Positions 5,628 through 63,573 of a DNA stretch of 64,000 bases are shown here, piece by piece (position 1 is the first letter of the stretch; every line of letters begins with the position of its first letter). The stretch covers positions 17,668 to 81,667 of the forward strand of contig SVSM01000001.1 of assembly GCA_015064295.1 (NCBI GenBank), in the 5' to 3' direction. The position numbers and the translations under genes were made by a program. Source of the stretch: Oscillospiraceae bacterium (GTDB lineage: Bacteria > Bacillota > Clostridia > Oscillospirales > CAG-272). The notes under the pieces were generated by a model that saw nothing but the letters and a program-made list of their open reading frames with translations, had not been told where the DNA came from and did no database searches.

Positions 5628-6362
5628 ATGAAACCTACCGCCGTGATTACCGGTGGCTCTCGGGGGATCGGAGAGGCCACGGTGCGCCTTCTGGCAGCCA
5701 AGGGCTACGCCGTGGTATTTGCCTACCGGAGCGCCGAGGATAAAGCCAAAGCACTGGAGGACGAGTTGCACGCCCAAGGCCTTGACGTGTTGGCGGTGAG
5801 AGCCGACGTGACCGATACCGAGCAGGTAAGGGCACTCTTTGCCCTTGCCGATAGGATCTACGGCAGGGTGGATGTGCTGGTCAATAACGCAGGCATCGCC
5901 CGCCAGCAGCTCCTTACCGACGTATCGGACGCCGATTACGAGGCGGTGACGGCGTTGAATCTGGGGGGCGTTGTCCGTTGCTGTCGGGAGGCCGTTCCGT
6001 ATTTCTTAAAGCACCATCGGGGAAGCATCGTCAACGTATCCTCGGTCTGGGGCGTCGTCGGCGCCTCCTGCGAGAGCGTTTACTCCGCCTCCAAGGCAGG
6101 CGTTATCGGCTTCACCAAGGCCCTGGCCAAGGAGCTTGGCCCCTCCGGTATTCGTGTGAACTGTCTGTGTCCCGGCGTGATCGATACCGAAATGAACACC
6201 ATGTACGGAAGGGACGTCATGGATGCCCTTGCCGATGAAACGCCTCTCGGCCGCATCGGAGCCCCGAGGGAGGTAGCGGAGGCCATCGCCTTCCTTGCGT
6301 CCGACGCCGCGTCCTTTGTGACCGGACAGGTACTGGGTGTGGACGGGGGCTTTGGTCTTTGA
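5628..6362 (+). CDS. SDR-family oxidoreductase (FabG-like 3-oxoacyl reductase type)
   Basis: Start at ATG 5628 (MKPTAVITGGSRGIG). Has the TGGSRGIG cofactor motif, NNAG, and catalytic YSASK. Confidence 0.8.
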   Translation: MKPTAVITGGSRGIGEATVRLLAAKGYAVVFAYRSAEDKAKALEDELHAQGLDVLAVRADVTDTEQVRALFALADRIYGRVDVLVNNAGIARQQLLTDVSDADYEAVTALNLGGVVRCCREAVPYFLKHHRGSIVNVSSVWGVVGASCESVYSASKAGVIGFTKALAKELGPSGIRVNCLCPGVIDTEMNTMYGRDVMDALADETPLGRIGAPREVAEAIAFLASDAASFVTGQVLGVDGGFGL

Positions 6363-6372
6363 CAAAAACATT

Positions 6373-6407
6373 AACGGTCTGTCACCATCGTGACAGACCG
6401 TTTTTTT
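6373..6407. terminator. Bidirectional terminator between the SDR and amidase genes
   Basis: Stem AACGGTCTGTCA / TGACAGACCGTT followed by TTTTTTT. Confidence 0.8.
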
Positions 6408-6413
6408 GTTGTG

Positions 6414-8177
6414 TTACTGCTTGTTGCGGCGTTTTTCCTTTAGGTAACGGAGGAGAAAGGGCGTCATGGTCAGGCCGATGGCGACGGGAATCACAATCAG
6501 CAGAGTAAGGACGTCCTTTACCGCCGACGGCATTTCCTTCCCGGTGTCAGCGGGCTCCGTGGAAGAGGGCATATCGGGCGCGGTGTCAGGAACGGTACCC
6601 TCCGAGCCCGCGGTGGTCTCGGTGGTTTCGGGGAGTGGCTCCTCGGTGTCAACGCTTGTTTCGGGCGTCGTGAGGAAATCCCGGTAGTCTGCCAGAATCT
6701 CGGAAAGGGAAGCCCCGCCATATGCGGCATACAGATCGGCGGCTCCTTCGGGGATGGCCCGATGGTCGTATTGGGTGGTGTAGGAATAGGCCATGTCAAG
6801 AAGGAGCTGCTCGTTGTTTCGCAGCGAGGCGATCTCAAGGCCGATGCCGGCGCCGCGGGAATGGGTACCGATGGGAACAGTAATCTCGGGAATGCCGAGA
6901 GGCGGCGCCAGAATCTTCACGTTGGTCACGAAATTCTGCTCGTAGACCTTCAGGGTTCCCGATTCCGAAACGCCCCGCCATTGAGGCGCGTGGAGATACG
7001 TCGGGAAGATCACGGCGGCAATATCGTTGTCCTTGAGCAGAGCTTCAAAGGCCGTATAGAAGGCGTTGACCGACTTTTTGGTGTTGTTGGCACAGGCGTT
7101 TGAGAGGGTGAATACCTTGGGCATCGACACCTCAATGACCTCAGCGCCGCAGGCTCTCAGCTCCTCAACGGCTCGGTCAAAGGTGGCAAGGATCTCCTTG
7201 TCCAGATTGCCCGCCTTTCGGCTTGACAGGGAGCTGACCGGTCCCGAAAGCTCCTTCAGAATACCGATGCGAAGCCCTTCCAGGGCATTGGCGTTCAAAT
7301 TTTGGGTGTAGGTTCCGTTCCCCACAAGGGTATCGAGCAAAATGGCCTGATCCTTCACCGTGCGGGTGATGGCGCCGGGGGTATCCCGCTTGGTGTTGAG
7401 GATCACGATGCCGTCGCGGTCAAGAAGGCCTGTTGTAGGGCGAAGGGAAACGCAGCCGTTCAGCGCGGCGGGATAGCGCAGGGAGGAGTTGGTATCGGTT
7501 CCCAGACTGCCGGCGGCAAAGTGAAGAGCCGTGGCCACGGCCGAGCCGCCGGAGGAGCCGCCGCAGGCCAGGTCGATGTTGTATGCGTTTCGCGTCTCAC
7601 CGACCGACGAGCTGATGGAGAGGCGGGCGTCCTGAGCACCCTTGCTCATGTTGGTCTTGGCCAGGATCACGGCTCCCTCGGCAATGAGGTTGTCCACGAT
7701 GGCGGCGTTATCCTTGGCGATCTGCTCGTCCTTCTTTTTGTAGCCGTTGGTGGTGTGGTAGCCCTCGTAATCGATGTTATCCTTTACCACAATGGGGATC
7801 CCGAACAGGGAGCCCTTGGCCTCTCCTGCTGCCAAAGTGGCATCTCTCCGGTCGGCCACCTCGGTGGCGTTGTCGCATAGGGTAATAAAGCAGTTATAGG
7901 GCTTGTTATAGGCCTCAATGCGCTCAAGATAGTAGTCGGTCAGCTCCCGACAGGTGATCAGCCGAAGGGCGATCGCCTCCCGCTGGGTGGCGATGTCGGC
8001 CTGAAAGAGTGCAGAGAGAAGGGCGTTCTTTTCCTCCTCGCTCAGATTGGCGGGTGGGAGAAGCTCGGTCTTGAGCGCCGTGTCGGCCGGCTCCTCCTCC
8101 GCCAATACGGGGAAGGAGGGGAGCAGAAGGGCAAGACAAAGCAAAAGAAAAAGAACGGAACGTAAGTAACCTTTCAT
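6414..8177 (-). CDS. Amidase-signature (AS) family amidase with an N-terminal signal peptide and a C-terminal membrane anchor
   Basis: Start moved to ATG 8177 (MKGYLRSVLFLLLCLALLLPSFPVLAEEE) behind GGAGG. AS motifs VVKDNIDYEGYHTTNG and CGGSSGGSAVA are present. The C-terminus is LTLLIVIPVAIGLTMTPFLLRYLKEKRRNKQ. Confidence 0.8.
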   Translation of the reverse strand: MKGYLRSVLFLLLCLALLLPSFPVLAEEEPADTALKTELLPPANLSEEEKNALLSALFQADIATQREAIALRLITCRELTDYYLERIEAYNKPYNCFITLCDNATEVADRRDATLAAGEAKGSLFGIPIVVKDNIDYEGYHTTNGYKKKDEQIAKDNAAIVDNLIAEGAVILAKTNMSKGAQDARLSISSSVGETRNAYNIDLACGGSSGGSAVATALHFAAGSLGTDTNSSLRYPAALNGCVSLRPTTGLLDRDGIVILNTKRDTPGAITRTVKDQAILLDTLVGNGTYTQNLNANALEGLRIGILKELSGPVSSLSSRKAGNLDKEILATFDRAVEELRACGAEVIEVSMPKVFTLSNACANNTKKSVNAFYTAFEALLKDNDIAAVIFPTYLHAPQWRGVSESGTLKVYEQNFVTNVKILAPPLGIPEITVPIGTHSRGAGIGLEIASLRNNEQLLLDMAYSYTTQYDHRAIPEGAADLYAAYGGASLSEILADYRDFLTTPETSVDTEEPLPETTETTAGSEGTVPDTAPDMPSSTEPADTGKEMPSAVKDVLTLLIVIPVAIGLTMTPFLLRYLKEKRRNKQ

Positions 8178-45436: not shown

Positions 45437-47125
<1,689 letters not shown>

Positions 47126-47137
47126 ACTTCGACTCCT

Positions 47138-48352
47138 TTATACACCAAGACCGGTCATAATGGAAAGCATAGGCGAATAGACCGCCAAGAACAGCGTGCC
47201 AATGATCGCACCCATGATGATCAGCATAATGGGCTGGATCTTGCTGGTGATGGAATTCAGCGAGGTCTCTACCTGCGCGTCAAAGAAGGAGCAGGAGCGT
47301 GTGAGAACGTCGCTGAGGGAGTTGGTTCGTTCACCGATGGTGATCATCTGGATCATCATAGAAGGGAAGAGCTCGTAGCTTTCAAAGGCGTTGGTCAGCG
47401 ACATGCCGCTGCGGATCGCCTCGGAAGCTTGCCGGAATCTGCCTAACAGATATCGGTTACCCAATACGATCTCCGTCGAATACAATGCCTCGTTCAGATC
47501 CATACCGCTGGACAGTAAGAGCGCCAGCGCACGGGCAAAACGGGAGGTGATCATATTGAGCTGCACGGTTTTGATCAGGGGGATCTTAAGTTTCATGACG
47601 TCCACGTAGTAGCCGACGAACTCGGTGCGGGCAACGGCAAAGATCAAGAAGCCCACGACGACGACGCCTACCAGCAGGTATTGCCAGGTGCCCATCAGGA
47701 AGTCCGAAATGGCGTATACCGCCGCCGTCAGTCCGGTCACCTCCACGTCAAGCTTGGTAAGAGTCTCCCGGAAGGTGGGAATAACCAACACCAGCATCAG
47801 GATCACGATGCCGACTGTCATGGCGGCGAGCATCATGGGATATGACAAAGCGGCCTTCAGCTTTCTGCGGAGATCCGCGTCCTTCTCGTAGTAGTCGGAG
47901 AGGGAGTTAAACACCTCATCCAGCCTGCCGCTGAGCTCACCGACCTTGACCATGCTGCGGAAGAAATCCGGGAACACCTTTGCTTGCTTTTCCAGGGCAT
48001 CGGACAGGAGCGTGCCTCCCTTGACCTCCTCGTAAATCACTGAAAGGATGGAACGGAAATAGGAGGAATAGGACTGATTTTTCAAAATGTCAAGGCAGTC
48101 CAAAATGGGAATATGGGTGTTCAGCATAATGGAAAATTGGCGACAGAAGGCAGTCAGCTCCGAAATGCTGACCTTGCCCGTGCCAAGGGTAAAGAAGGCA
48201 GAGGGGGCACCGCCGTCGTAGGGCTTTGCCGAGACCAGAAACAGGCTTTGCTTGGCAAGCTGCTGCTCCAGGTCCTGCTCGTCCTTGGCAATAAACACGC
48301 CTTTTATTTTTTGCTTTTGCAGATTGATTGCCGTATACCGATATTTTTGCAT
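47138..48352 (-). CDS. pilC: Type IV pilus platform protein (PilC/GspF family)
   Basis: 404 aa. Duplicated T2SSF-type halves, 3-4 TM segments; immediately upstream of the ATPase gene. Confidence 0.9.
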   Translation of the reverse strand: MQKYRYTAINLQKQKIKGVFIAKDEQDLEQQLAKQSLFLVSAKPYDGGAPSAFFTLGTGKVSISELTAFCRQFSIMLNTHIPILDCLDILKNQSYSSYFRSILSVIYEEVKGGTLLSDALEKQAKVFPDFFRSMVKVGELSGRLDEVFNSLSDYYEKDADLRRKLKAALSYPMMLAAMTVGIVILMLVLVIPTFRETLTKLDVEVTGLTAAVYAISDFLMGTWQYLLVGVVVVGFLIFAVARTEFVGYYVDVMKLKIPLIKTVQLNMITSRFARALALLLSSGMDLNEALYSTEIVLGNRYLLGRFRQASEAIRSGMSLTNAFESYELFPSMMIQMITIGERTNSLSDVLTRSCSFFDAQVETSLNSITSKIQPIMLIIMGAIIGTLFLAVYSPMLSIMTGLGV

Positions 48353-48367: not shown

Positions 48368-49171
48368 TTACACCAAATCAAACACAAAACCGAGATACCA
48401 GGTCAGAATCCCATTTCCGAAGAACATCGTTATGAGCGTCCCCAGCGCCAAAAACGGGCCAAAGGGATACTCCGTGCGCTTATCGGCATGGCGGATACGG
48501 TTGGCCGCTACCATGCAGACACAGCCCAGCACCGATGCGATCAGGATGGCAGGGATGAATTTCTGCCACCCCAGCAAAAGACCTGCCGCGGCGGCGTATT
48601 TCACATCCCCGAAGCCAAGCCCCTCGGTCTTCAGAACGGCGATGCTTCCGTAGTAGAGGGCCGCAAAGACGGCACCACCTACCGCCGCACCGATCAGGTG
48701 ATCGTACCATGCCGTAAAGCCGTCGGTAAACATGGCGGCCAGACCGCACAGGGCTAACAGGACCGTGAAGCGATTGAAAATCAGCATATGCTCAAGGTCG
48801 ATCCAAAAGATACCGATCAAAAGGGACGAGACTGCCATGGCCGTCAGGGCGTAGATAACACTTTCCTCCCAAAACAGCCGAACCGAAAGGAGCCACAAAA
48901 GAGCGTTCAAAAGCTCCACCATCGGATATCTGGGGGGAATGCGATCGCGGCAGGAGCGACACCGTCCGCCGAGGATCAGGTAAGACAGGAGAGGAACGTT
49001 GTCGTACCATTTGAGTCGGTAATCACAGCGGGGACAATGGGAGGCGGGATGCGAAAGCCTCATGCCGTTTGGCAAGCGGTAAATGACCACGTTCAAAAAA
49101 CTGCCGACACAGAGACCGATCAGTCCTGCAAGCAGATAGACACACAAAAGGATAAATTGCCTCTCGTCCAC
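48368..49171 (-). CDS. pilD: Prepilin peptidase (A24 family, PilD/ComC)
   Basis: 267 aa with a GTG start at 49171, 7 nt after GGAGG. N-terminal CPRCDYRL...CRSCRDRI zinc-type motif; GFGDVKY catalytic Asp region. Confidence 0.9.
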   Translation of the reverse strand: MDERQFILLCVYLLAGLIGLCVGSFLNVVIYRLPNGMRLSHPASHCPRCDYRLKWYDNVPLLSYLILGGRCRSCRDRIPPRYPMVELLNALLWLLSVRLFWEESVIYALTAMAVSSLLIGIFWIDLEHMLIFNRFTVLLALCGLAAMFTDGFTAWYDHLIGAAVGGAVFAALYYGSIAVLKTEGLGFGDVKYAAAAGLLLGWQKFIPAILIASVLGCVCMVAANRIRHADKRTEYPFGPFLALGTLITMFFGNGILTWYLGFVFDLV

Positions 49172-49281: not shown

Positions 49282-50442
49282 TCAGAAATTGTTGAGCTTG
49301 TTATATTGCTTGACGTAACAGCCGCCCAGCAGTTCCAAAACCTTCGGTGCGGCACCGCTGAACATCGGCGCAAAGATAACGCCGTTCTCTTCCTTTTCCC
49401 CGTTGACCATGTCAAACAGGAAGCGGTATTCCTGGGGCATATTCACGTATACCGTCTCGATTTCCCCAAGGGCGGTAATTTTCGAATTGGATGCGATCAG
49501 ATCCAGCGTCCATTTCATGAAGATACGAAAGTTTTCATAAATGAAGCCCTTTGGGTCGGTCGGTGTTTCCCGAAGCATAAACTTGGGCAGCTTACGTCCG
49601 CCGCGGGTTTCGGTCACTTCCCCCTCGGCATCTTCCTCGCTTACGCCCGGGAAGCTTTCGGTTTGGGAGAGGACCTCGTCATCCGCATCCATGGCCCCTA
49701 ATATATCCGTTATCGTCATCTTTGCCTTGGCCTTCTCCTTGGCGTTCTGCACCAGGGCCTCGGCGGCTGAATGGTCAAATAACAGGTCCTCGGCCGCCAG
49801 CTGCGAGGGATGCAGGGCGGTGCGGCCAAAGGGTAAGCGATAGGATCCCAGCGTTCTGCCCTTGTTTAAGAAGGCAAAGTGCGCGGAGGTGTCTTTGATG
49901 TCCAAAAGCAGGCAGGTCTCTCCCCGCAGCTTCGGGTTGAGCGCCATGGCACCGTCCGCCATAGCGTTTGACACAAAGGTTACGTTTTCCAAACGGTATC
50001 CGGCGTCGTCAAATACCGCCTCAAACCGTTCTAAAAGCGCGGTGCGGATACCGACCAGGCCGTACTGCGCCGTTTGCTTATTCTGGGACAGCAGGAAGGT
50101 GTTGTAGGTCAGATCGCTTTTGTTCTGATACACCGTGCCGATGACCAGATTCAGTGAATTGTTCACCGCCTTTTTTCCCATATTGGGAATGGTGATCATG
50201 TCGGTCAGAAAAAAGTCGTCGGGCAAGAGCAGGGAAACGTCCGGCAGGCTCTTTGCGGTATGCTTTTGTTTATACAAGCGCAGGATCTGGCTCAGTTCGT
50301 CAAAAAAGCCGTCGTCCATGGCGGTAGCGTGATAGGGGGCAGCCGTAAAGCTGCCGTTACTGTCGCCTCCGCTCTGATAGAAATAGATTCGGTTATTGTC
50401 GTTGTTGACGAAAATGGTGAAGGACATGGTGTTCTCGGCCAT
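49282..50442 (-). CDS. PilM-like (actin-fold-like) pilus assembly protein, divergent
   Basis: 386 aa. The segment CLLLDIKDTSAHFAFLNKGRTLGSYRLPFG resembles the second phosphate-binding subdomain of PilM. There is no clear N-terminal DxGxx motif, and an acidic insert (DADDEVLSQTESFPGVSEEDAEGEV) is present. The call rests mostly on context. Confidence 0.45.
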   Translation of the reverse strand: MAENTMSFTIFVNNDNNRIYFYQSGGDSNGSFTAAPYHATAMDDGFFDELSQILRLYKQKHTAKSLPDVSLLLPDDFFLTDMITIPNMGKKAVNNSLNLVIGTVYQNKSDLTYNTFLLSQNKQTAQYGLVGIRTALLERFEAVFDDAGYRLENVTFVSNAMADGAMALNPKLRGETCLLLDIKDTSAHFAFLNKGRTLGSYRLPFGRTALHPSQLAAEDLLFDHSAAEALVQNAKEKAKAKMTITDILGAMDADDEVLSQTESFPGVSEEDAEGEVTETRGGRKLPKFMLRETPTDPKGFIYENFRIFMKWTLDLIASNSKITALGEIETVYVNMPQEYRFLFDMVNGEKEENGVIFAPMFSGAAPKVLELLGGCYVKQYNKLNNF

Positions 50443-50454
50443 TGTAACTCTCCT

Positions 50455-50829
50455 TTACTGCAGCTGCCAGACAGTGATCCGGTAGGCGCCTGCATCGTTT
50501 TCAAGGCATACACGCAGAAGTGTTCTGTCGCTGTTCTTTTTCTTGACGGACATTTCCAGCCCGTTTATCGTGATCTCATAGGCAGGATAGCGCGCAACCC
50601 AGTTGTGCTCGGGTTCGTCGGCGGCGGCTATAAAGTCCTCGCCGATCTGCTCAAGGACCATGCTGCGCTCCATTTCCTCCAGGAGACGGAGCTGCTTGCT
50701 ATGCTGCAGCAGGGAGGTGGTCAGGAGGATGATGGAGAGAGAAACGGTCAGCACCATCACCATAATGGCCAGCTCGATGGCGGCACCTTTGCGGCTCGCC
50801 GTTCGTTTTTGCCTAAGAAGGATGGCCAT
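50455..50829 (-). CDS. Pilin-like protein with an atypical class III signal
   Basis: 124 aa. Begins MAILLRQKRTASRKG-AAIELAIMVMVLTVSLSIILL, so Glu lies at +4 rather than +5 after the Gly. ATGA-coupled to the upstream minor pilin. Confidence 0.5.
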   Translation of the reverse strand: MAILLRQKRTASRKGAAIELAIMVMVLTVSLSIILLTTSLLQHSKQLRLLEEMERSMVLEQIGEDFIAAADEPEHNWVARYPAYEITINGLEMSVKKKNSDRTLLRVCLENDAGAYRITVWQLQ

Positions 50830-51245
50830 CAGGAGGCACCTCCTTCCGTGGGAAAGGTGTAGGAATATATCGCCTCGCTGCTTGGTTTTGCGACGGTGTA
50901 GTCAAGCTTTTTGGGGGAGAAGGATGCCTTTACGGTGACGGTGATGGTCTTGCTCCGGCACACATAGGCGTTCTCCTCTTGGCTGTATGCAAAGTTGTCG
51001 AGGGCTTGCAGCGCCTGTAAAAAGGTATCCGCATCCTCGGAAAAGCGGAAGCAGTTTAGCACGTCCGCGGCACTGCTTTGGGCATCGGCTATGGCAAGAT
51101 AGTTTGCCTCGACGCTCACCGATCGCAAAACCATGCCGACCGCGGCGGCACTGATGATCGTAATGATCACAAGGGCGACGGTGACCTCAACGACGGTCAT
51201 GCCTCTACGACGGCGAAGGCCGTTCCGTTTGACAGTATGATTCAT
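50829..51245 (-). CDS. Minor pilin / pseudopilin (prepilin-type N-terminus)
   Basis: 138 aa. Begins MNHTVKRNGLRRRRG-MTVVEVTVALVIITIISAAAV (Gly-1, Glu+5). GGAGG lies upstream of the ATG at 51245. Confidence 0.7.
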   Translation of the reverse strand: MNHTVKRNGLRRRRGMTVVEVTVALVIITIISAAAVGMVLRSVSVEANYLAIADAQSSAADVLNCFRFSEDADTFLQALQALDNFAYSQEENAYVCRSKTITVTVKASFSPKKLDYTVAKPSSEAIYSYTFPTEGGAS

Positions 51246-51276: not shown

Positions 51277-51792
51277 TTACTCGGATGCGGTTTCTCCCAC
51301 TCGCTCTCCTACGCGGGAGAGAATGGTAAAGGTATCTTCTAAGGCGACTCGATTCCCGGCGGCGTTTGTTACCGAGTAAACCAGCGTGCAGAAGATCAGA
51401 GGATTACCGTTCGATCTTGTCATTTGACGGAATTGAAGCTCCTCCACCGTGTCGATGGGACAGAAGAGCTTCTGCCCATCGGGCAGCGGGGCGGTCAGGG
51501 TGCCCTCCTCCCAAGCCACGCGATAGGTCTGTCCCTCAACGGTGGCGGAAAGGCCGGTCTCGTCGGCGGTAATGGAGGCATCCAGCCCGGTCATGCGGTC
51601 CACCCAGCTTTTCAGAATGACCTGACACAGCTCTCGGTCTTCGGAAGCGCTCAGCTTGGTGGTGGCAGCGGCACTGCGGGCGTTGACCATGACGGTAAAG
51701 GAGACCACGACCGTACCCACGATGGCAAGGACGGCCAGCACGACACACATTTCCGCAATGGTAATGCCGGTTCTTTTTCGCTTTTTATGCAC
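51277..51792 (-). CDS. Minor pilin / pseudopilin (prepilin-type N-terminus), GTG start
   Basis: I place the start at GTG 51792, 7 nt after AAAGGAGG. The product begins VHKKRKRTG-ITIAEMCVVLAVLAIVGTVVV (Gly-1, Glu+5). The longer track ORF (to 51927) would prepend an implausible leader. Confidence 0.65.
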   Translation of the reverse strand: MHKKRKRTGITIAEMCVVLAVLAIVGTVVVSFTVMVNARSAAATTKLSASEDRELCQVILKSWVDRMTGLDASITADETGLSATVEGQTYRVAWEEGTLTAPLPDGQKLFCPIDTVEELQFRQMTRSNGNPLIFCTLVYSVTNAAGNRVALEDTFTILSRVGERVGETASE

Positions 51793-51907
51793 GGTAACGC
51801 CTCCTTTCGCGATCAATAACGGGGGTACAATAAAAGCGGTAAACACCACAACACCCCAAAAGAGTGCTGTGGTATTTTGATGATGCATTGATTTAATTGG
51901 TGCGGAA

Positions 51908-52348
51908 TTAGGCCATGTCCTTGCCACAAATGGAGCAGGTGCCGTTTACGTTGACGTGGTCGTTCGTTGCACACTCGATGACGGTCCACTTCACGCCGTC
52001 AAGAGCCGTTTCGTCGGCCTCGATCAGGGGCGTACCGCCGGCCATGGTGGGCTGGGTCTCGTATACGGTGTCCTCGACGGAACCGTTGGAGACCTTGACG
52101 TAGTAAGTATCGTTGCCCTTGACGACCTTGACGAGGGCCGTGGAAGCGGCGGTATCGCCGGCGGCGTAGTCAATTGCACCGATGTAGCTGGTGTGCAGAT
52201 TCTTGGCTTCCTGAAGCACGGCGGAGTCATTGGCCTTTTTGATGACGCTGGAGAAGGTGGGAATCAGAACGGCAGCCAAAATCGCAATCACGGCGATGAC
52301 AATGACAAGCTCCGTAATGGTGAAGCCCTTGCGGTTGCACTTTTTCAT
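51908..52348 (-). CDS. Type IV pilin (146 aa), candidate major subunit
   Basis: Start at ATG 52348 behind AAGGAGA. Begins MKKCNRKG-FTITELVIVIAVIAILAAVLIPTFSSVIKKAN, a canonical class III signal. The C-terminus carries C...CSIC. Confidence 0.8.
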   Translation of the reverse strand: MKKCNRKGFTITELVIVIAVIAILAAVLIPTFSSVIKKANDSAVLQEAKNLHTSYIGAIDYAAGDTAASTALVKVVKGNDTYYVKVSNGSVEDTVYETQPTMAGGTPLIEADETALDGVKWTVIECATNDHVNVNGTCSICGKDMA

Positions 52349-52367: not shown

Positions 52368-52412
52368 GAAAAATGCGTGTAGCCCGAGCCCGAAAGCCGA
52401 CCCGGGCTACAC
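52368..52412 (-). terminator. Intra-operon hairpin (attenuator/partial terminator) after the large pilin gene
   Basis: 10-bp perfect stem GTGTAGCCCG / CGGGCTACAC (52377-52386 / 52403-52412) with a 16-nt loop. The reverse strand continues GCATTTTTC. Confidence 0.4.
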
Positions 52413-52437: not shown

Positions 52438-53673
52438 TTATTGCGTTACACCGTTGACGGTGATGGTGCCCCACTGGGTACCGTCAGCCAGCACGCGGCA
52501 TGTGCCGATGGTGTTGTTGTTGGCAATGATGGTGCCGCCGGTGCTGTATACATAGAAGGCAGCGCCGGAGGTGTTGATCTTACAGCCGGATACCTTAGCG
52601 GTACCGCCGTTGGATACGGCAACACCTGCTGCGGGAGCAGAACCGACGGTGGCGTTAGCGGTGGTGATGACGCAGTCGATGAGCTCGGCGTTACCGGTGA
52701 TCTCGAATGCGGCGCCACTGGTGTTGATGGTCACGCCAACGAACTTGGCATTGCCGGGAACGTTGAAGCCGGCATGGGCAGTATAGGAGCCGCCCTCGAT
52801 CAGAATAGTAGCATCGCCGCCGAACTGATTGGCGTTCATCAAGAAGCCGTCATTGGAGCTGTCCACATAGTTAACGTTCTTCAAGGTGATGTTGACGTTG
52901 TCAGCACCGGGACGGAGCTTCACGAAGGCACCGTTATCGGTGTTGGCATTATAGTTACCGTTCTCCAGGGTAACGGTGCATTCCTTAACGGATGCGGGAA
53001 CGTTGACCATGCCGAATTTTCCGCAGTCGATGTCCTTGTCGCCGCCCTGAACCGTCAGCTTAGCGCCGTTGGTCATTTCCAGAGGACGGGAGGAGTTGTT
53101 GGCACCGCTCAGCTTGTGACCGTTCAGATTGATGGTCATGTCGCCCTTTACGGGGATGGTCTGATCCATGACGATGTCTTCGGTCAGAGTGACGTCGCTA
53201 CCGGCCTGGAGAGCTTCAACGATGTTCTCGGAATTTACTTCCACGTTGATGAACTTGGCGCCTTCCTTCAGAACCAGGGCCTTGCCGTCAGCCAAATGGG
53301 TGGCGAAGGACTCTGCCAGCTTCTTGTCGGTGGGGAACTTGACGGTCTTGCCGGCCTCTTCTACCAGCATAACCGTATTGTGCTCGCTGCACCAGTAGTA
53401 CTCGTAGCCCTTGGTGTGGGGCTCCAGAGCCAGGGCGTCAAAGCCGGCCTCTTCCAGAATGTCGATGACTTCCTTCAGGGTAGCGGGCTTTTCCTTAACG
53501 GATGCAGAGCTCAGCACCGTGTTCATCTCACGGGCGGCCTGCTCGTCGGAGGATACGTTCGCCTTCTTGATCAGACTGGAGAACGTGGGGATCAGCACTG
53601 CGGCCAGGATCGCAATCACAACGATTACAATGACCAGCTCGGTAATGGTGAAGCCTTTGCGCTCGTTTTTCAT
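52438..53673 (-). CDS. Large type IV pilin (411 aa): class III signal plus pilin helix fused to a beta-solenoid-like C-terminal domain
   Basis: Start at ATG 53673. Begins MKNERKG-FTITELVIVIVVIAILAAVLIPTFSSLIKKAN. The C-terminal ~230 aa is made of short x-V-x-I/L-x-G/N rungs (MTINLNGHKLSG, CTVTLENGNYNA, VNITLKNVNYVD, ATILIEGGSYTA, AKFVGVTINTSGAAFEI, AKVSGCKINTSGAAFYV). Confidence 0.75.
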   Translation of the reverse strand: MKNERKGFTITELVIVIVVIAILAAVLIPTFSSLIKKANVSSDEQAAREMNTVLSSASVKEKPATLKEVIDILEEAGFDALALEPHTKGYEYYWCSEHNTVMLVEEAGKTVKFPTDKKLAESFATHLADGKALVLKEGAKFINVEVNSENIVEALQAGSDVTLTEDIVMDQTIPVKGDMTINLNGHKLSGANNSSRPLEMTNGAKLTVQGGDKDIDCGKFGMVNVPASVKECTVTLENGNYNANTDNGAFVKLRPGADNVNITLKNVNYVDSSNDGFLMNANQFGGDATILIEGGSYTAHAGFNVPGNAKFVGVTINTSGAAFEITGNAELIDCVITTANATVGSAPAAGVAVSNGGTAKVSGCKINTSGAAFYVYSTGGTIIANNNTIGTCRVLADGTQWGTITVNGVTQ

Positions 53674-53753
53674 TTTTTTCCCATCCTTATTGATAAATTG
53701 ATAAAATTTACTCACGGTGCGTGAAAAAATTAAATGATTGTATATTCAATACC

Positions 53754-53782
53754 ATTATAACATGCCCAAACGGAAAATGCAA
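53754..53782 (-). promoter_or_regulatory. Sigma-A-type promoter of the pilus operon
   Basis: Reverse strand reads TTGCAT, a 17-nt spacer, then TATAAT with an extended TG (-35 at 53782-53777, -10 at 53759-53754). It is about 80 nt upstream of ATG 53673. Confidence 0.65.
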
Positions 53783-62610: not shown

Positions 62611-63573
62611 TCATTTCCCTGTGTTTTTCTTATTCAGCTTTTTCAGCCGCTTGGCCTCGGCTTCGGCGGCGTCGCGGGCGGCGACGGCGGCCAGCGTCTT
62701 CTTCCTTTTGTAAAGGATGGGAAGGACGATGACGGCAGCCAGAAGGAGAAGGACGGCGATCAGTACGATAACGTCCACGAAGAAGGGAACCGCGTCGCCG
62801 AACAGCATGCTGCGGCGGCTTCCGTCAAAGGTGGAACGGGTGAGGAGTGCGGTTTCGTTTTGGTAGGCGTCAACCGACGTAAGAGAGTCGAGGGAGCTGC
62901 CTGCCTTCAGTGTCATGCTATCCAGCTTCAGCAGCTTATCGGAAATGAGGGCGGGCTCCTTCGATTCGATGGTCAGATTCGAGCCCTGGAGAAGCATACT
63001 GTATGAGGAGCGGAAGGAACCGACGGCCTTCACGGTGACGTTGTTGCCGGTTCGGAGCTCCCGGGCGTTAACGGCGTAGCCATCGGTGCCGGTGACGGTG
63101 ATCTTGCCGCCCGAAAGCGCTACCTTTTGGTCGTCGGAACGAACGCCGTCGATGCCCCCCAGGATGGTATAGGTGCCATCGGTGATCGTCAGCTGGCGGT
63201 TATGGTCGGTAGCTTGGCAGAGGATTCCGTACTCACCCCCCTCAAGGGTCAGGCTGCCGCTTCCGCGGAAGATGACGTTGCCCCCGATATACAGGGCGGC
63301 TACCGAGGCCTTGATGTGGTTTTTTCCCTTCAGCACCACGGTAGCACCGTCGGGGATCTTGAAGCCGTAATCGTCGGCGGTCATGAGATTCAGGCCGTCC
63401 AGTGTCAGGGTGTCGGTCATGTTATTCCAATCAAACCCCGGTCCCTGTACGTGCTGGTTGACGTTCAGGAGGCTGACGCCGTCGGTCAAAACCGTTTTGG
63501 CCGACACGGGAAGGGGCAGAACCGTCAGGGCGATCAGCAAGAGGGGAAGAACAAAGCGTATCGATCGTTTCAT
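62611..63573 (-). CDS. Exported, C-terminally anchored repeat protein (beta-solenoid-like; carbohydrate-binding-domain-type family)
   Basis: 320 aa. Signal peptide MKRSIRFVLPLLLIALTVLPLPVSA. Repeated G-x-I/L-x-I/L rungs (GNVIFRGSGSLTLEGG, LTITDGTYTILGG, GKITVTGTDGYAV). C-terminal TM plus a Lys-rich tail. Confidence 0.6.
   Translation of the reverse strand: MKRSIRFVLPLLLIALTVLPLPVSAKTVLTDGVSLLNVNQHVQGPGFDWNNMTDTLTLDGLNLMTADDYGFKIPDGATVVLKGKNHIKASVAALYIGGNVIFRGSGSLTLEGGEYGILCQATDHNRQLTITDGTYTILGGIDGVRSDDQKVALSGGKITVTGTDGYAVNARELRTGNNVTVKAVGSFRSSYSMLLQGSNLTIESKEPALISDKLLKLDSMTLKAGSSLDSLTSVDAYQNETALLTRSTFDGSRRSMLFGDAVPFFVDVIVLIAVLLLLAAVIVLPILYKRKKTLAAVAARDAAEAEAKRLKKLNKKNTGK

Follow-up and report, generated by a model that had tools for sequence, protein, structure and literature searches.

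A type IV pilin with a predicted C-terminal right-handed beta-helix, a candidate pilus-borne adhesin of gut Clostridia

A 64,000-nucleotide stretch of DNA from an Oscillospiraceae bacterium (assembly GCA_015064295.1, contig SVSM01000001.1, positions 17,668 to 81,667; hereafter the window) carries a type IV pilus operon headed by a gene for a 411-amino-acid (aa) protein (52438..53673, minus strand). This protein is probably a modular type IV pilin that functions as an adhesin on the pilus: a class III signal, a polymerisation helix and a small pilin head are predicted to carry a 28-kDa right-handed parallel beta-helix at the C-terminus. The evidence comes from structure prediction, from the near-identity of its polymerisation helix with that of the adjacent short pilin, and from the other proteins on which the same beta-helix module is found.

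Predicted architecture of the 411-aa pilin

The minus-strand open reading frame (ORF) extends over 52438..53715, and its product from the ATG at 53673 is 411 aa long. The sequence AAGGATGG lies ~8 nt upstream of this codon, the JGI gene call for the 174-kb source contig has the identical start and length, and all homologue N-termini begin M-K-x-x-x-K-G-F-T. These observations agree on the use of ATG 53673; the concern attached to the original prediction, that this codon might be unused and the signal absent from the real product, was not borne out, and the alternative, longer start (GTG 53715) also retains the class III signal. The signal consists of a basic leader peptide, MKNERKG (residues 1-7, 53653..53673), followed by the hydrophobic helix FTITELVIVIVVIAILAAVLIPTF, with Gly-1, Phe+1, Glu+5 and Pro+22. 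Both Pfam N_methyl (PF07963; 25.6 bits, cut-off 21.2) and TIGR02532 (24.3 bits, cut-off 16.3) match residues 4-27 above threshold, which, together with the modelled helix, upholds the class III signal and pilin helix proposed earlier. An identical protein in public data, from a Ruminococcaceae metagenome-assembled genome (MAG), is labelled as a prepilin-type protein.

AlphaFold2 was run on the full-length protein with a 47-sequence alignment and gave a model with a mean predicted local distance difference test score (pLDDT) of 92 and a predicted template modelling score (pTM) of 0.71; a domain-only model of residues 116-411 had a pLDDT of 94.8 and a pTM of 0.88. In the full-length model, the pilin part and the beta-helix are two separate modules. 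The polymerisation helix alpha1 (residues 8-57, 53503..53652, minus strand, as are all features of this gene) begins with mature Phe1, includes Glu5 and Pro22, and is modelled as helical over residues 10-57. In a comparison of the profile of the 47 homologues with the PDB, this segment matched alpha1 of geopilin and PilA (geopilin E 2e-15). A small pilin head follows (residues 58-115, 53329..53502), comprising a short helix (66-75) and a three-stranded sheet (90-95, 100-105 and 110-113), with a pLDDT of 80-92 for alpha1 and head. The arrangement characteristic of pilins, a long alpha1 packed on a small beta-sheet head, is therefore present in the predicted model.

The next segment is a linker and N-terminal cap (residues 116-159, 53197..53328) of helices, among them helix 117-128, and short strands; it is the least conserved part of the protein, with a mean pairwise identity of 0.27. 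Residues 160-411 (52441..53196) are predicted to form a right-handed parallel beta-helix of ~10 rungs, built from ~28 short strands, three per rung, with a pLDDT of 96-99. This 28-kDa module is acidic (isoelectric point about 4.7) and rich in Gly, Asn and Thr. The original prediction had described a pilin helix fused to a beta-solenoid at 52438-53130, i.e. residues 182-411 and the stop codon. In the predicted structure the protein has more than a plain pilin head, and the solenoid is a right-handed beta-helix, which begins at about residue 160, ~20 residues earlier than proposed; the head (58-115) and the linker/cap (116-159) had been overlooked.

When both models were compared with the PDB using Foldseek, the top 50 matches were all right-handed parallel beta-helix (pectate-lyase-fold) proteins. 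They included the A-module of AlgE4 epimerase, the binding region of the L. reuteri serine-rich-repeat protein SRRP (SRRP-BR) and S. pneumoniae PfbA, as well as pectate and alginate lyases, glycoside hydrolase (GH) family 28 polygalacturonases, a GH87 glucanase and phage depolymerase tailspikes. The top matches in the viral library BFVD had the same fold. At the sequence level, Pfam Beta_helix (PF13229) was matched by 11 of the 47 homologues (E<=0.01), two members scanned singly falling under the gathering score; two homologues matched the 'pectate lyase-like adhesive domain' (Pectate_lyase_5) and one the carbohydrate-binding family Cthe_2159. Sequence and profile searches of the PDB matched alpha1 alone; for the solenoid they gave only insignificant matches, to a beta-1,3-glucanase and a phage tail protein (E ~0.02). 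On the strength of the models, a pectate-lyase-like right-handed beta-helix fold is established for this module, and a functional family is not.

The rungs, which the original prediction had read from the sequence, are real in the predicted structure and do not amount to a fixed-period sequence repeat. When the hydrophobic and Gly/Asn positions of residues 160-411 were tested by autocorrelation, no lag exceeded 2000 shuffles, and rung lengths vary; the idea of a sequence repeat was abandoned for these two reasons. Since no sequence periodicity was found, the solenoid assignment rests on AlphaFold2, Foldseek and the Beta_helix matches of the homologues.

Carrier and module in other genomes

The mature N-termini of the 411-aa protein and the adjacent 146-aa pilin were said to match at 30 of 32 positions, and this figure proved exact. 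The same relationship recurs elsewhere: at about 15 loci in other gut Clostridia of different genera, a short pilin gene lies 20-200 nt downstream of a long one, and in all but one of these loci 25-30 of the first 32 mature residues are shared by the long pilin and its short neighbour. The minor pilins match the long pilin alpha1, which has both Glu5 and Pro22, at only 6-12 of these positions. Judged from these alignments, the proposed co-polymerisation of the 411-aa protein with the 146-aa pilin is strengthened, not proven. Within the family, pairwise identity falls from 0.77 in the leader and N-terminal part of alpha1 (alpha1N) to 0.37 in the head and 0.27-0.36 in the linker and solenoid, a gradient that would fit a constrained assembly interface joined to a freer effector.

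A first protein search returned 2283 relatives, mostly of about 400 aa and with N_methyl, and a scan of species-representative genomes gave at least 348 confirmed loci among the ~600 pattern matches listed. The loci come from MAGs of gut and rumen Clostridia, including Oscillospiraceae, Christensenellaceae, Acutalibacteraceae, Subdoligranulum and Candidatus Scatosoma. Among the matches listed, single MAGs carry 3-7 different long-pilin loci, and the pilin ORFs at the loci have a bimodal length distribution (100-200 aa and 400-800 aa). A hidden Markov model (HMM) of the head, built from residues 58-125, matched nearly all 250-800-aa pilins in other genomes; it matched none of the complete short pilins located beside a long pilin, and only a few short or cut ORFs. 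The HMM of the window pilin's beta-helix matched only a subset of the long pilins. It follows that the long pilins have a common carrier but different C-terminal modules. Those other modules that were inspected are again solenoid-like, as in P0043 with its xxIxGGxF rungs, and Pfam recognises almost none of them.

Most long-pilin copies are orphan cassettes. Among loci L008-L087, 21 had at least 5 kb of downstream sequence, and the PilB/C/D assembly genes were present at four of them and lacking at the other 17. Some orphan loci retain the pair of a long pilin followed by a short pilin.

The distribution of the module beyond pilins provides the main argument about where it works. Residues 154-411 were searched against 1.84 billion cluster representatives, which resulted in 178 matches at E<=1e-3, 132 of them at E<=1e-10; carriers were counted among the best 150 of the 178. 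Pilins account for 24, each with the head. They are outnumbered by proteins with a TasA/camelysin-type N-domain and a SipW-dependent signal (Pfam Peptidase_M73, TIGR04088), of which there are at least 42; in P0038, P0040, P0123, P0124 and others the module is ~40-47% identical and stands on such N-domains. A further 14 carriers are lipoprotein-like, one of the four scanned having DUF6562, lipoproteins of Bacteroidota are among the carriers, and others have three SLH domains or BspA-type leucine-rich repeats (LRRs). Some carriers contain two or three tandem copies of the module. In two giant non-pilin surface proteins, a soluble cassette of head, linker and beta-helix, devoid of the hydrophobic alpha1N, is embedded: in the lipoprotein-like P0125 (residues ~308-600) and in P0145 (residues ~1175-1523), which has BspA-type LRRs. 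Because all carriers that could be identified are surface-display devices, the module is taken to work outside the cell, on a fibre or wall, and the beta-helix is a portable surface-display module.

The pilus operon

Upstream of the modular pilin gene, an unrelated oxidoreductase gene ends in its terminator, and next comes a promoter-like element, a putative assignment read by eye (TTGCAT, 17-nt spacer, extended -10 TGtTATAAT; 53754..53782, minus strand) that a consensus scan did not list, its -35 hexamer agreeing at three of six positions. The modular pilin gene heads a same-strand cluster with the complete set of assembly functions downstream (Peptidase_A24, T2SSF and T2SSE genes), the genetic association expected of a pilin. 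The 146-aa classical type IV pilin (51908..52348, minus strand, as are the genes that follow) is the presumed major subunit, as indicated by N_methyl at 29.3 bits, pilin family matches and the shared alpha1. It is followed by a 171-aa minor-pilin-like protein (51277..51792), recognised from the gene call and a weak N_methyl match, with the degenerate class III signal KRTG/ITIAE; a 138-aa PilV-like minor pilin (50829..51245), with Pfam and NCBIfam matches; and a 124-aa protein (50455..50829) that has an N-terminal hydrophobic pilin-like segment and no family match. A 386-aa protein (49282..50442) has no Pfam, NCBIfam or PDB match and keeps its position in the operon in at least 7 further loci; it is probably an unrecognised assembly component, in place of PilM/N/O. 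The cluster is completed by a prepilin peptidase/N-methyltransferase (48368..49171; A24_N_bact and Peptidase_A24), a PilC/GspF platform protein (47138..48352) and a PilB-type assembly ATPase (45437..47125), the last two assigned from family matches.

The modular pilin gene is separated from the 146-aa pilin gene by a terminator-like hairpin (52377..52412, minus strand) whose 14-bp stem contains 9 G-C pairs and precedes GCATTTTTCA (z-score -4.5). Of 12 related loci, 9 have a similar hairpin between the long and short pilin genes. Downstream of the 146-aa pilin gene there is likewise a stable hairpin, with a 17-bp stem (within 51793-51907, minus strand), and a downstream hairpin was therefore rejected as a pointer to the major pilin: both pilin genes have one, so the layout is silent on which of the two is more abundant. 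The paired hairpins suggest that both pilins are expressed in excess over the assembly genes.

Synteny is kept in two relatives, L003 and L004, at 36-39% identity, one of which has two tandem long pilins; one further relative is an orphan copy. In L003, a GIY-YIG gene (6139-6414) is inserted among the minor pilin genes. A gene for a large GAP1-N2/GAP1-M protein stands directly after PilB in both L003 (12085-13534) and L004 (18238-20955) and is absent from that position in the window operon. About 9 kb from the pilus operon, the window also contains a 320-aa ORF (62611-63573, minus strand) whose product combines a beta-helix-like body with a signal peptide, a transmembrane helix at the C-terminus and a tail rich in Lys. 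Its body matches the pilin beta-helix HMM (E 1.6e-5), and the JGI record has a weak Cthe_2159 match; it is a second, membrane-anchored solenoid surface protein.

Function, alternative readings and known systems

We infer that the protein is processed and incorporated into pili, at their tip or along their body. The operon's own prepilin peptidase would cleave off the 7-residue leader; alpha1, with Glu5 and Pro22 and its near-identity to that of the 146-aa pilin, would then allow insertion into the same filament by PilB/PilC. The C-terminal beta-helix would in this way be carried past the Gram-positive wall, along or at the end of the pilus, where its most likely role would be to bind some glycan or other surface ligand of the gut and not to act as an enzyme. 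A binding role is moderately favoured over an enzymatic one in view of the adhesins among the structural neighbours, the nature of the carriers and the lack of polysaccharide lyase (PL) or GH matches. The functional claims made originally, that the solenoid is displayed on the fibre as an adhesin or enzyme, are plausible and would fit the modular-pilin concept (PMC8179133).

Several observations count against a pilus-borne adhesin. The Foldseek matches have E-values of 4e-3 or weaker and template modelling (TM) scores of 0.35-0.55, i.e. they hold at fold level and do not permit assignment to a functional family; the better domain-only model left them there (E >= 4e-3). The 411-aa query has no Pfam beta-helix match of its own, and the family members are uncharacterised by experiment. 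A few polar positions (D166, D/N182, R196 and N280) are conserved near the first rung and cap, as placed by alignment columns. Proteins of the pectate-lyase fold are enzymes more often than adhesins. A PilT/PilU-like retraction ATPase was not found in the window, where a phmmer search with PilB returned PilB alone, and the bulk of the 28-kDa module may restrict its position within the fibre.

The fold-level neighbours raise the question of whether the beta-helix is instead a lyase, hydrolase or epimerase that degrades plant or host glycans away from the cell. AlgE4, the pectate and alginate lyases, GH28, GH87 and the phage depolymerase tailspikes would all be compatible with this, as would the conserved polar residues and the gut or rumen habitat of the host organisms. 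However, no PL or GH family of Pfam or NCBIfam was matched by the query or any of the 47 homologues, which gave only the generic Beta_helix, the 'adhesive' Pectate_lyase_5 and the binding family Cthe_2159. The conserved columns of the module are mainly Gly, Leu and Ala and mostly structural, the polar ones appear from the alignment to lie in the first rung and cap, outside the central groove, and the helix is short and loop-poor, resembling the enzymes in fold only (TM 0.35-0.5). Membership in a polysaccharide lyase or GH28-type enzyme family was rejected, there being no PL/GH match and no conserved acidic cluster or catalytic signature, and a pilus-borne enzyme is considered improbable. A reading in which the class III signal serves only for membrane anchoring or release, and the protein forms no structural part of a long pilus, is less probable again. 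Class III signals are also found on archaeal sugar-binding proteins and in pseudopili of the type II secretion system type. The position of 17 of the 21 judged long-pilin loci away from PilB/C/D, the 3-7 copies in several genomes, the occurrence of the head, linker and beta-helix cassette inside non-pilin proteins and the missing PilT are all in keeping with an anchor. Against it stands an alpha1 with Glu5 and Pro22 that is near-identical to that of the adjacent classical pilin across genera, a constraint that an anchor would hardly explain; moreover, a membrane-anchored 43-kDa protein would not extend past the Gram-positive wall, and the window copy opens a full pilus assembly operon.

The two remaining alternatives accept a pilus and make the 411-aa protein more than a rare tip pilin. 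It could be a stoichiometric body subunit, alternating with or replacing the 146-aa pilin in a 'bottle-brush' pilus covered in beta-helices. It has a major-pilin-type alpha1 (30/32, Glu5, Pro22), its gene comes first after the promoter-like element and is closed by a strong terminator-like hairpin of its own, as is typical of major pilin genes, and a heteropolymeric pilus made from two major pilins has a precedent in a monoderm bacterium (PMC10628169). The hairpin, however, is shared by the 146-aa pilin gene, the modular and large pilins characterised so far are all minor or tip subunits (PMC8179133, PMC6561018), and the numerous orphan paralogues suggest accessory roles; we regard this reading as the least likely of those weighed. 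More speculatively, and still unlikely, the long pilins could decorate the shaft as interchangeable repertoires of a carrier head with a variable solenoid, mostly orphan and 3-7 per genome, feeding one assembly machine; the effector would also be exchanged with TasA-type fibres, SLH proteins and lipoproteins of Bacteroidota. Co-polymerisation along the shaft, which would cover the pilus with beta-helix modules, is put forward because the long and short pilin alpha1 are near-identical across genera. If all this were true, different fibre systems would draw on a shared, exchangeable adhesin toolkit.

With the pilus-borne adhesin as the preferred reading, the protein can be compared with known systems. 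Modular pilins were defined by Raynaud et al. 2021 (PMC8179133) on the examples of Streptococcus sanguinis PilB (vWA) and PilC (lectin), and that study listed over 1200 modular pilins in 264 architectures from InterPro; its Dataset S1 contains the combination IPR012902-IPR039448 (pilin and right-handed beta-helix) in 3 proteins. Apart from this dataset listing, no description of the present pilin and beta-helix family was found in the literature. The definition, a pilin joined to a module not confined to the biology of type IV filaments, describes the 411-aa protein, whose module also occurs on TasA/SipW, SLH, lipoprotein and LRR carriers. As in S. sanguinis PilB/PilC, a class III pilin module bears a bulky C-terminal module also known outside pilins, the host is monoderm, the gene belongs to a pilus operon and the predicted role is adhesion. 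Unlike in PilB/PilC, the effector is a pectate-lyase-fold beta-helix with uncharacterised members, there is a conserved carrier head of its own with an alpha1 near-identical to that of the adjacent short pilin, and the family is multi-copy with many orphan loci.

A large beta-solenoid on a type IV pilin-like protein, likewise proposed to be presented by the pilus, is known from Thermus thermophilus ComZ (PMC6561018), in which a DNA-binding, triangular solenoid of ~380 residues resembling ice-binding proteins interrupts the pilin sheet between its last two strands. In the 411-aa protein, by contrast, the solenoid is pectate-lyase-like and C-terminal, after a complete head and linker; no sequence relation between the two proteins was found, and the AlphaFold2 topology, with the beta-helix outside the pilin sheet, ruled out a ComZ-type solenoid pilin. 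Tapirins are beta-helix cellulose binders encoded beside a type IV pilus locus in a Firmicutes bacterium that degrades plant fibre. They share with the present family the genetic linkage of a beta-helix binding domain to such a locus; unlike it, they are separate proteins according to the tapirin preprint, and the word 'pilin' is absent from its main text. The 411-aa protein was not matched by the NCBIfam tapirin model (NF051896), whose only matches, in the 146-aa pilin and P0043, were weak and covered just the N-terminal hydrophobic helix, and tapirin structures were not among the top 50 Foldseek matches. The L. reuteri SRRP binding region (5nxk_A) and S. pneumoniae PfbA (4mr0_A) are among the best structural matches, with Foldseek probabilities of 0.89-1.0. 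Both are right-handed beta-helices and Gram-positive surface-displayed adhesins that bind rather than cleave; they differ in their anchors, LPXTG or a serine-rich-repeat stalk instead of a pilin, and are only 8-16% identical to the module (TM about 0.3-0.45).

The 411-aa protein is thus of a kind already described, and its uncharacterised family is a new example of it. It gains interest from an alpha1 like that of major pilins, a conserved carrier head, repertoires of several copies and a module that TasA-like fibres have as well. Judging by the carriers, at least two fibre systems (type IV pili and TasA-like fibres), as well as wall or lipid anchors, may have acquired one and the same uncharacterised surface module. 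Little is understood of how strictly anaerobic Clostridia of gut and rumen attach to fibre, mucus or other cells, and a pilus-displayed beta-helix is a concrete candidate; the 28-kDa module has a high predicted folding confidence and could be produced for glycan-array and structural work. Compared with the systems in which modular pilins were defined, the family extends the idea from a few pathogens to abundant commensals.

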